Shown here: positions 1,228-3,109 of the stretch, piece by piece
Numbering within the stretch: position 1 is the first letter of the stretch
How the letters are laid out: each line of letters begins with the position of its first letter
Source of the DNA: Minisyncoccota bacterium
GTDB lineage: Bacteria > Patescibacteriota > Minisyncoccia > Phycocordibacterales > UBA5272
NCBI GenBank assembly: GCA_018061825.1
Contig: JAGOTK010000002.1
Span: 100-64,099, forward strand
Direction of reading: 5' to 3'
Length of the DNA: 64,000 bases
Position numbers and translations under genes: made by a program
The notes under the pieces: model-generated
What the model saw: the letters and a program-made list of their open reading frames with translations, nothing else
What the model was told of the DNA's origin: nothing
Databases searched by the model: none

Positions 1228-1342
1228 TTTGTTTGCTGTGAATGTGAACTGGAACTCTGATGATCAGAAGTGGAACGTGAATGATTACAAGCTTGATGAG
1301 AATGGTAATTGGAATCAGGGCAATCGTGTCTTTAGCAACAAA
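1228..1342 (+). repeat. DGR template repeat (TR), non-coding, rich in AAC/AAT (Asn) codons in the VR frame
   Basis: Gap-free alignment to VR at a +443 offset; adenines at the mismatch positions; the ORF-track entry 1190..1429 is a spurious TTG-initiated frame over the TR. Confidence 0.8.
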
Positions 1343-1349
1343 TATTACT

Positions 1350-1377
1350 CTCTCCTAATCTTTAGGAGAGTTTTTTT
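1350..1377. terminator. Hairpin (ctctcct/aggagag) plus T7 just 3' of TR; overlaps the avd stop codon and likely acts as a bidirectional terminator
   Basis: 7-bp perfect stem 1350-1356/1364-1370, loop aatcttt, T-run 1371-1377; the convergent avd ends at 1355. Confidence 0.5.
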
Positions 1378-1717
1378 CTATCTGTCCAAGCCATCCACCA
1401 AGCATTCTTCCTATTTCATCAATCGGTAAAGAAAGTAATTCATATTTTTTAGTATCTATTGATCTTGTTTCCCAGAGCACAAGTAAAAGTATTTTCAGTG
1501 TATCGAGTTTTCTTATCGCTGTCCTTAAATATGGAATCTTATCATCTTTTTTTACAAAGCTTGCACTAGAAATCATTTCTATTATTTCTATAAATAAATT
1601 ATCTATTTTTATTGCTAGAGTATAGCGATGAGTTTTTGGTATCGTGTGATAGACACTATACCAAAATAAATATATACTTTTCACTTTTTGCAAAATTGGA
1701 ATTAATTTTTCTTGCAA
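1355..1717 (-). CDS. avd: Accessory variability determinant (Avd)-like four-helix-bundle protein (23S rRNA-intervening-sequence protein family)
   Basis: 120 aa; sequence pattern typical of the four-helix-bundle family (…LFWYS…IGRMLGGWLGQI…); sits next to the DGR RT; apparent TTG start at 1717. Confidence 0.7.
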   Translation of the reverse strand: MQEKLIPILQKVKSIYLFWYSVYHTIPKTHRYTLAIKIDNLFIEIIEMISSASFVKKDDKIPYLRTAIRKLDTLKILLLVLWETRSIDTKKYELLSLPIDEIGRMLGGWLGQIEKNSPKD

Positions 1718-1759
1718 TTTCGTCGGGGGGGGGTAATATTAGTAGTATTCATATATTTT

Positions 1760-2776
1760 ATGAAATATTATACTACAAGCTATGAAGAAATTATTTCTCT
1801 AGAAAATTTACTTTTAGCATATAAAGAATTTAAAAAAGGAAAAACTAAAAAGAAGGATATGATAGAGTTTGAATTTAATTTAATGAGTAATTTGATATAT
1901 TTACATAATGAATTGAAAAATAAAATATATAAGCATGATAATTATTTACATTTTAAAATAAATGATCCAAAAGCAAGAGATATACACAAAGCAAAAGTGA
2001 AAGACAGAGTTCTTCATCATGCTATATATAGAAAACTCTATCCATTTTTTGATAAGGCTTTCATAAGTGATTCTTATTCTTGTAGAAATGATAAAGGTAC
2101 ACATAAAGCTTTAAAACAATTTGAAAAATATACAAGAAAAGAAAGCAAAAACTATACTCGTCAGTGCTATATTTTAAAATGTGATATACAGAAATTTTTT
2201 GCAAATATTGATCATAATATTTTACTTTCTATTTTAAATAAAAAAATTCTGGATAAGGATATTATTTATCTTTTAAAAAATATTATTGAAAGTTTTAATA
2301 CAAAAGAAAAATTAGAAAAAGGATTGCCTCTTGGAAATTTAACTTCTCAACTTTTAGTAAATATTTACATGAACGAGTTTGATCAATTTGTAAAACACAC
2401 TTTAAAAGTGGAATCTTATATAAGATATGCTGATGATTTTGTATTTATTAATAAAGATAAAATATGTTTAGAAAAATTAAAATATCAAATAGCTGATTTT
2501 TTAAAACAAGAATTAAAACTAAACCTTCATCCAGATAAAGTTTTTATTAAAACAATTTATTCTGGAATAGATTTTTTAGGATTTATATATTTTGCAAAAC
2601 ATAAAGTTTTAAGAACTAATACAAAAAGAAGAATGCTACGAAAATTAAAAGAAAATGATTTTAAGAAAGAAAGTTTAGATTCTTACTTTGGATTATTAAA
2701 GTTTGGAAATACTTTCAAAATTCAATCAAAAATTAAAAAAGAAATGGCAATACTTGTAATAGAAGAAAAGTTTTAA
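1760..2776 (+). CDS. DGR-type reverse transcriptase
   Basis: RT motifs present: SYSCRNDKGTHKA (motif 2), LPLGNLTSQLLVNIYMNEFD (motif 4 with the DGR-specific I/LGxxxSQ), SYIRYADDFVFI (motif 5, YxRYxDD), GFIYF (motif 7). The probable ATG is at 1760; the ORF-track start at 1712 would overlap avd. Confidence 0.85.
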   Translation: MKYYTTSYEEIISLENLLLAYKEFKKGKTKKKDMIEFEFNLMSNLIYLHNELKNKIYKHDNYLHFKINDPKARDIHKAKVKDRVLHHAIYRKLYPFFDKAFISDSYSCRNDKGTHKALKQFEKYTRKESKNYTRQCYILKCDIQKFFANIDHNILLSILNKKILDKDIIYLLKNIIESFNTKEKLEKGLPLGNLTSQLLVNIYMNEFDQFVKHTLKVESYIRYADDFVFINKDKICLEKLKYQIADFLKQELKLNLHPDKVFIKTIYSGIDFLGFIYFAKHKVLRTNTKRRMLRKLKENDFKKESLDSYFGLLKFGNTFKIQSKIKKEMAILVIEEKF

Positions 2777-3001
2777 TTAAAATATAAAAATAAAAATAAA
2801 AAATATTTATAAATTTATTTTTTATAAAATTTTTTTTTAAAAAATAAAAAATATTTTTTGAGTTATCCACAAAATATTTTTTAAAAACTATTGTATAAAT
2901 TTTTTTTGAATGAGATAATAATAATAAGAGAGGCAGACCAAAGGTCCAAGGTCAAAAATTAAAAGCGCACTCTCTAGTATTTAATACTAAAAAACAAAAA
3001 T

Positions 3002-3109
3002 ATGGTAGCAAAGAAAAAAGTAGCAAAGAAAAAAGTTGCTAAAAAAGTAGCACACAAAAAAGTTGCTAAGAAAGTAGCAAAGAAAAAAGTTGCTAAGAAA
3101 AGAAAATAG
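3002..3109 (+). CDS. Possible 35-aa lysine-rich basic peptide (MVAKKKVAKKKVAKKVAHKKVAKKVAKKKVAKKRK), histone H1/Hc1-tail-like; encoded by three tandem ~27-nt repeats
   Basis: ATG 3002, TAG 3107-3109, strong terminator 22 nt downstream; no SD; shorter than the ORF-track cutoff. Confidence 0.25.
   Translation: MVAKKKVAKKKVAKKVAHKKVAKKVAKKKVAKKRK

Follow-up and report, generated by a model that had tools for sequence, protein, structure and literature searches.

How does a diversity-generating retroelement (DGR) make and prime its RNA when the space 3' of its template repeat (TR) is taken by a gene on the opposite strand? The question is raised by a locus in a 64,000-nucleotide stretch of a Minisyncoccota bacterium (GenBank assembly GCA_018061825.1, contig JAGOTK010000002.1, positions 100 to 64,099 of the forward strand), called the window below when its full length is meant. 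The locus is a chromosomal DGR of a bacterium from the candidate phyla radiation (CPR; Patescibacteria), with TR and a variable repeat (VR), a target gene, a reverse transcriptase (RT) and the accessory protein Avd, whose gene is inverted and lies between TR and RT. CPR and DPANN hold a large share of DGRs, and the mechanism is known from one phage element only, in which the scaffold is 3' of TR; in this locus the 3' scaffold space is occupied by the inverted gene, and the interest lies in how this arrangement, Architecture B3, works and not in the layout. The reading preferred here, with a probability of roughly 0.8, is that of an active B3 DGR with a dedicated RNA composed of a leader, TR and a hairpin, in which TR is bracketed by two helices, LR and P4. 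The parts of the cassette are as follows.

267 to 914, + strand: target gene, 215 aa, an open reading frame (ORF) with its stop codon at 912-914
786 to 898, + strand: VR, in the last 43 codons of the target gene, in gapless 113-bp alignment to TR
1229 to 1341, + strand: TR, in gapless 113-bp alignment to VR at an offset of 443
1355 to 1717, - strand: avd, 120 aa from TTG 1717 (132 aa from ATG 1752 in variants with a G10 tract), from Pfam and NCBIfam profiles
1760 to 2776, + strand: DGR reverse transcriptase, 338 aa, with RVT_1 at 78 bits and the motifs LGNLTSQ and YADD

VR, TR, the hairpins, avd and RT all lie where a first-pass annotation of this DNA, made from the letters alone, had placed them. 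Of the 23 mismatches between VR and TR in 113 bp, one is T>C and the other 22 affect TR adenines (13 A>G, 4 A>T, 5 A>C). VR spans codons 174-211 of the 215-codon target ORF, i.e. the 3' end of the coding target, and the 35 TR adenines, read in the target frame, fall on codon position 1 (14) and position 2 (21) and never on position 3. The 120-aa ORF is Avd-like, as had been claimed: it passes the cut-off of Pfam bAvd (55.8 bits, cut-off 40) and falls narrowly below that of NCBIfam DivGenRetAVD (73.9 bits, cut-off 80). By its motif 4 ([I/L]GxxxSQ) and YxDD the RT is of the DGR type, and among solved structures it is closest to the Bordetella-phage bRT (8ub7_A, 3.8e-41, 145 bits), with a group II intron RT at 86 bits.

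Helices around the template repeat

The comparison was based on 80 GTDB relatives of the RT, all from metagenome-assembled genomes of Patescibacteria/CPR and with an RT 55-77% identical. VR lies 239-463 bp upstream of TR in these relatives (median 336), and the VR-TR interval of 62 loci was aligned with MAFFT (alignment A2), in which blocks are conserved in all relatives and compensatory changes are visible. RNAalifold returned 56 pairs in 11 helices for the leader. The elements of the leader and of the region directly 3' of TR are listed by position.

998 to 1096, + strand: leader 5' domain, with P1, P1a, P3 and P2, from the RNAalifold consensus, pair counts and the single-sequence fold
998-1006 / 1034-1042, + strand: helix P1, enclosing hairpin P1a
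1012-1020 / 1025-1033, + strand: helix P1a, the hairpin inside P1
1047-1055 / 1088-1096, + strand: helix P3, enclosing hairpin P2
1060-1070 / 1075-1085, + strand: helix P2, the hairpin inside P3
1113 to 1119, + strand: LR 5' strand, UAAUAUU, pairing with 1341-1347, candidate primer-strand analogue
1124 to 1222, + strand: leader 3' domain, P4 enclosing P5 and P6
1124-1135 / 1211-1222, + strand: helix P4, 12 bp, its 3' end 6 nt before TR
1138-1142 / 1148-1152, + strand: helix P5, inside P4
1163-1173 / 1190-1202, + strand: helix P6, inside P4
1341 to 1347, + strand: LR 3' strand, AAUAUUA, beginning at the last base of TR-VR homology
1350 to 1377, + strand: post-TR hairpin and U7, 9 bp (1350-1358/1362-1370) with T7 at 1371-1377, terminator-like by score, predicted analogue of an Avd-binding stem-loop

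Standard pairs fill 92.6% of the cells of the leader pairs, against 70.9 +/- 0.5% after shuffling (0/500 as high) and 38-51% when the pairing was slid by 1-3 columns. Changes on both sides were found in 51 of the 56 pairs (37-41 when slid) and in 800 cells (149-202 when slid); P4 has 12 pairs, 10 of them with both-side changes, and is 96.4% paired. The same 56 pairs were then scored in 47 unseen metagenome loci, which were found through a 17-mer, confirmed by a downstream avd (-) and RT (+), and share 56-84% identity with the closest training sequence; 95.2% of cells are paired there versus 36-49% when slid. The leader of the window alone (996-1228) folds with z = -3.5, more stably than any of 200 shuffles, and recovers the helices. 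TR plus the post-TR hairpin folds no more stably than its shuffles (z = -0.25), and the hairpin itself covaries (85.8% paired versus 36-62% slid).

The loops of P1a and P2 are nearly alike and are conserved in most relatives (approximately GAUUACGGUU); in the window P1a (1018-1027) has GAUUAUGGUU and the P2 loop is degenerate. These loops may be duplicated protein-binding modules. Matches to the 17-mer AAATGAAGATACTTGGT in 36 IMG/VR contigs were discarded as chance, since 0 of the 33 with enough flank have avd or RT downstream.

The linker 5' of P4 (consensus AAAUGAAGA) is complementary to the stretch between the end of TR and the hairpin (consensus UCUUCAUUU), and this duplex, LR, is specific to cognate partners: its mean energy is -6.27 kcal/mol, compared with -4.03 +/- 0.2 for permuted partners, and 0 of 2000 permutations were as good. 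The two strands vary in a compensatory manner, from UAAUAUU/AAUAUUA in the window to AUUUAGU/ACUAAAU (L017), AACGAAGA/UCUUCGUU (L031), AAAUAAAGA/UCUUUAUUU (L040) and AAAUGAGGA/UCCUUAUUU (L061). A median of 2.5 nt separates P4 from the start of TR-VR homology, and a median of 4 nt separates the end of that homology from LR, which is followed by the hairpin after about 1 nt. The 5' strands of LR and P4 form one continuous leader strand, 4 nt apart, and bracket the 3' and 5' sides of TR, respectively, so that the template would be held as a loop between LR and P4.

The stem base of the post-TR hairpin (CUCUCC/GGAGAG) is conserved among the relatives, and its inner stem covaries. Table S3 of Handa et al. 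(bioRxiv 10.1101/2023.10.23.563531) lists a putative Avd-binding stem-loop, CUCUCC...GGAGAG, 13-36 nt past TR in CPR DGRs, and window 1350-1370 is the same element; the hairpin is accordingly named here as a predicted analogue of an Avd-binding stem-loop, a protein contact proposed by analogy. Candidate CA...UG pairs around this hairpin were dropped, as no clear covariation was seen by eye in alignment A3. On the + strand, 59/62 loci have at least 6 T within the 9 nt that follow the hairpin, and on the minus strand 0/62 do, which suggests a one-way intrinsic terminator for the TR transcript and not for avd, because the minus strand has no T-run after the hairpin. That the hairpin is a plain terminator between convergent units, with no DGR-specific role, is unlikely: its stem and U-tract have the canonical anatomy, but ordinary terminators lack sequence conservation, and here the stem base persists at an RT identity of 55-77%, the hairpin keeps a fixed distance of about 1 nt from LR, and the strand bias of the T-run leaves no terminator for avd. 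The element was also scored independently as an Avd-binding stem-loop, and the two roles are compatible.

In the Bordetella-phage (BPP-1) ribonucleoprotein, spacer (Sp) positions 53-56 pair with the 3' end of TR as the template:primer duplex, and the adjoining Sp 58-70 pair just upstream of TR as the cPRT Stop (Handa et al., bioRxiv 10.1101/2023.10.23.563531). By analogy we infer that the template:primer duplex would have its counterpart in LR and the Stop duplex in P4. The two systems are alike in a bRT-like RT, Avd, adenine-specific mutagenesis, a stem-loop directly 3' of TR, and a TR bracketed by 3' and 5' duplexes on one continuous partner strand. They differ in that BPP-1 has the order avd-TR-RT on one strand with the partner strand in a 140-nt spacer 3' of TR, whereas this locus has an inverted avd, antisense avd as its TR-RT interval, a partner strand ~95-115 nt 5' of TR in a 230-nt leader, and an RNA that apparently stops at a terminator immediately beyond the stem-loop. 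The BPP-1 spacer motif, Rfam RT-10, has no match here either, and no structured spacer of ~140 nt lies between TR and RT. The topology of BPP-1, with template:primer and Stop duplex on one strand, thus appears to be retained with a permuted strand order, and a 5' partner strand fits the layout because the 3' side of TR is taken by the inverted avd.

The first-pass annotation had suggested that the hairpin 3' of TR is the spacer or priming structure. It is a covarying element of the DGR RNA, but it is not the sole priming scaffold because both ends of TR have their covarying partners upstream, in 980-1228. That stretch, which had been taken for a spacer, holds instead a promoter-like box and the structured leader RNA. 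Retron ncRNA (msr-msd) offers a further comparison, being likewise a dedicated structured RNA gene beside an RT that carries the template and, as LR would here, a priming structure; unlike the RNA described here, it comes without a VR/TR pair, Avd or adenine mutagenesis, and the RT scores 65-74 bits against retron RTs versus 145 bits against bRT. The compact, covariation-backed RNA (predicted promoter, scaffold, template and terminator) is a defined construct for reconstitution of a CPR DGR (window ~1000-1377 with RT and Avd), which would allow testing whether cis-priming and the stop barrier persist with the permuted strand order.

Transcription of the template repeat

Two features lie between VR and the leader.

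922 to 983, + strand: post-VR hairpin and T-run, 12-bp stem (922-933/968-979) 3' of the target stop codon, read from the sequence
965 to 993, + strand: promoter-like site of the DGR RNA, TTGATC (965-970)-17-TATAAT (988-993), 10/12 matches

The -10-like box occurs at the same aligned position in 57/62 loci, with the extended form TGnTAnnnT in 37/62, and lies 6-8 nt before the first conserved leader helix. A promoter of its own, one of the options left by the first-pass annotation, is therefore the most likely source of TR transcription, with the start placed at this predicted site. TR cannot be on one transcript with avd. Its co-transcription with RT is geometrically possible because the two are on the same strand, so the earlier statement that TR is co-transcribed with neither gene holds for avd but does not follow from the layout for RT, where it is the conserved U-tract terminator that makes read-through unlikely. 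The post-VR hairpin would be a terminator-like end of the target gene, at the place of the inverted repeat near the initiation of mutagenic homing (IMH) site.

Four transcription units are most likely in all. The first would be the target gene, ending at the hairpin and T-run of 922-983, and the second a dedicated DGR RNA of ~380 nt that runs from the -10-like box (988-993) through the leader (998-1222) and TR (1229-1341) to the hairpin and U-tract (1350-1377); the third and fourth would be avd on the minus strand and RT on the plus strand, diverging from a 42-bp gap with a G9 tract. A TR carried on its own small structured RNA gene, with the transcript ends predicted as above, would explain function without co-transcription with avd or RT. 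RT and Avd would bind this RNA with the post-TR hairpin as the Avd grapple, by analogy; priming would occur at the LR duplex, TR would be copied with adenine-specific errors up to P4, where synthesis would stop, and VR would be replaced by the cDNA.

Several points weigh against this account. The equivalence of LR and P4 to the template:primer and Stop duplexes is argued from topology and position. One MAFFT alignment served both to derive the leader structure and to test it first, a weakness that the slid controls and the out-of-sample set lessen but do not remove. The promoter and terminator assignments are consensus-level matches in DNA of 27% G+C, where a promoter scan performed at chance level (22 sites found, 20.9 expected). 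Handa et al. (bioRxiv 10.1101/2023.10.23.563531) moreover predict a different Stop duplex for CPR DGRs, which pairs sequence upstream of TR (-30..-21) with sequence downstream (~+48..+57; Table S3) and would require read-through into antisense avd. Finally, the invariant leader sequence GGUGG(U) at 1197-1204 is complementary to the invariant CCA.CC.CC at 1390-1398 in antisense avd, where the coding strand encodes the GGW motif of Avd; neither side of this GGUGG/CCACC pairing varies, so covariation cannot separate a real pairing from a coincidental one.

The latter two points, together with the shared strand of TR and RT, would fit a functional RNA that reads through from TR across antisense avd into RT, with Sp functions inside antisense avd and the hairpin as merely an Avd-binding stem-loop. 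Such an RNA is quite improbable. It would have to pass the U-tract seen after the hairpin in 59/62 loci, and duplexes between the 40 nt upstream of TR, the only upstream input to the Handa et al. prediction, and +50..+150 downstream are not cognate-specific (rank 0.48, cognate and non-cognate stability being equal), whereas P4, used as a control, clearly is. No covarying antiparallel run or diagonal joins leader and post-hairpin columns, and the same 40 nt pair further upstream instead, in the strongly covarying P4 and P6; an upstream:downstream Stop duplex was therefore rejected in this clade, apart from the invariant GGUGG/CCACC pair. A scan of 700-2000 against Rfam (E <= 10) gave chance-level matches only (snoRNA, CRISPR-DR), with no RT-10 and none of the motifs RT-1 to RT-19.

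That TR has no promoter of its own and is reached by transcription continuing from the target gene through the 922-979 hairpin is very improbable. The two are on the same strand, and passages of Wu et al. (2018; PMC5758913) place terminators after the IMH in a minority of DGRs only, but here a T-run and then the -10-like box, conserved in position in 57/62 loci, come after the hairpin, and the conserved covarying RNA starts 6-8 nt past that box and not at the target stop codon.

Cassette layout and activity in nature

The start codons of avd (TTG 1717) and RT (ATG 1760) diverge with 42 bp between them, as the first-pass annotation had described, and the avd stop codon (1355-1357) is within the 5' arm of the post-TR hairpin, on which the final avd codons are overprinted. 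Order and strands are the same in 8 further assemblies of the lineage (L081-L088), from different samples, that carry the same Avd or its 132-aa form. Among the relatives, all 75 with enough upstream sequence have avd immediately upstream of RT and on the opposite strand, and 61 of these 75 carry an adenine-biased TR on the RT strand, just past the avd 3' end; the avd stop is a median of 13 nt past the end of TR, and the avd ORF mostly extends through the hairpin. The 47 further metagenome loci have avd (-) and RT (+) downstream.

This layout is Architecture B3, TR-(avd)-RT, in which parentheses mark the reverse strand; it has already been catalogued, and this locus is one more instance. Passages of Wu et al. 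(2018; PMC5758913) assign B3 to 90% of their CPR DGRs and state that cassettes split between strands require at least two transcription units. The locus has the order, strands and host group of those B3 elements, with Avd as the sole accessory gene and no difference in layout. The comparison with catalogued CPR architectures, which had been proposed earlier, thus gave a match, and the description of the layout as non-canonical is correct relative to the Bordetella-phage order but does not make it new. Upstream structured RNA is absent from those passages of Wu et al. (2018; PMC5758913), a paper not searched specifically for one, and a word search of its text found no mention of a promoter, a homopolymer tract or phase variation. 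A literature search found no paper linking DGRs to homopolymeric or phase-variable tracts. The leader RNA and the repeat tract described below appear to be undescribed; literature coverage was incomplete, so the novelty of both is uncertain.

The window and three other assemblies show 26 variable VR columns, 24 of them on TR adenines, with 0 differences in the 519 bp of non-VR target, the 243-bp VR-TR interval, TR, the post-TR hairpin and avd. Across six assemblies there are 5 distinct VRs and 31 variable VR columns, and the sole difference in 701-1405 outside VR is a 7-nt repeat indel; TR is identical in every assembly compared. The DGR is active, with VR diversifying by mutagenic retrohoming on this population evidence, because VRs differ among assemblies that are otherwise identical in flanking DNA, TR and avd. 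That the inverted avd reflects an assembly inversion, or that the cassette is degenerate and inactive, can practically be dismissed, as the arrangement is shared by nine independent assemblies, all 75 relatives and the 47 metagenome loci, and VR varies at TR-adenine positions while the remainder is identical.

The repeat tract and neighbouring features

The gap between avd and RT contains two further features.

1725 to 1733, strand not assigned: G9 homopolymer tract, within the 42 bp between the divergent avd and RT
1734-1741, strand not assigned: palindromic TA-rich box TAATATTA, directly after the G9 tract

G9 is the only G or C run of at least 8 in the 64-kb window, which has 27.1% G+C. A repeat tract is found at the avd-RT gap in 73/76 loci, mostly as G6-G13, and is replaced by (GA)n in three (L005, L048, L069), by (TG)n in two (L018, L057) and by (GGCT)9 in one (L062); 41 of the 47 extra metagenome loci have a G tract of at least 6. 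Its length is polymorphic in the lineage of the window (9 assemblies: G8 in one, G9 in four, G10 in four) and in a second lineage (C7 in eight, C9 in two), and uniform in a third (C9, 5/5); a fourth lineage (C7, 3/3) is uninformative, as there the exact-protein look-up used a called ORF that includes the tract. A metagenome scan with the tract flanks of the window gave no match. Two assemblies, L083 and L088 (SRR33541902 and SRR33541910), have the same VR and tracts of G8 and G10, respectively, so the tract can change without new VR diversification.

In the lineage of the window only G10 brings an upstream ATG into frame with avd, giving the 132-aa Avd. That the C tract switches avd by translational frameshifting is not supported in general, as an in-frame upstream ATG is present in only 17/70 loci, its position is not conserved, and both alleles of the second polymorphic lineage are out of frame; avd more probably starts at a conserved TTG located 7 nt past the tract. 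A model in which the tract sets the spacing of an RT promoter (TTGCAA-16-TAATAT, spanning G9) fails in some relatives, e.g. with a spacing of ~11 in L007, and is kept as a hypothesis.

Repeat-tract contingency loci in promoters and 5' regions include the poly-G or poly-C tracts of Neisseria porA and opc and of Bordetella fim. The tract described here resembles them in being a long homopolymer in a short divergent control region, with a replaceable repeat type and a length that is polymorphic among otherwise identical strains; it differs in that the in-frame upstream ATG is inconsistent. A contingency-type switch of RT and/or Avd expression by the tract is plausible but unproven, and the polymorphism suggests a testable on/off control of hypermutation. 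The generalization that TR-(avd)-RT DGRs of CPR run on a circularly permuted RNA gene of ~380 nt, with its own promoter and terminator and with the primer strand, the stop duplex and probably an RT-binding scaffold 5' of the template, and that RT and/or Avd are stochastically switched by a hypermutable tract, so that hypermutation is phase-variable, is offered tentatively, its odds somewhat short of even.

Upstream of the cassette, one feature may belong to the target gene.

126 to 153, + strand: promoter-like site of the target gene, TTGACA-16-TATACT with TG, 11/12 matches, a consensus match only

The 215-aa target protein has no Pfam, NCBIfam or meaningful PDB match, and no second VR, RT or avd was found within the 64-kb window. 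The loop of the post-VR hairpin (934-967) consists of (A/G)CTTTGC heptamer repeats, with 4 copies in the window and L081 and 3 in L082 and L083, and relatives have CTTnG motif arrays at the corresponding spot 3' of VR (alignment A2); the heptamers could be tied to target-site recognition. A 79-aa ORF on the + strand (1190-1429) crosses TR and is very unlikely to be a real gene, because TR merely keeps the reading frame of the VR codons; comparable gene calls occur in relatives, e.g. the 69-aa ORFs of L089-L098. Within the RT gene, a 171-bp patch (1835-2005) has 44 substitutions (26%) between the window and all four of L081-L084 and is more A+T-rich in the window, while the rest of the gene is identical; it looks like a recombination or gene-conversion tract. 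Downstream of RT, a 35-aa ORF (3001-3108) consists almost entirely of (V/A)AKK repeats (MVAKKKVAKKKVAKKVAHKKVAKKVAKKKVAKKRK), is followed by a hairpin terminator, and is called as a gene in other assemblies too.

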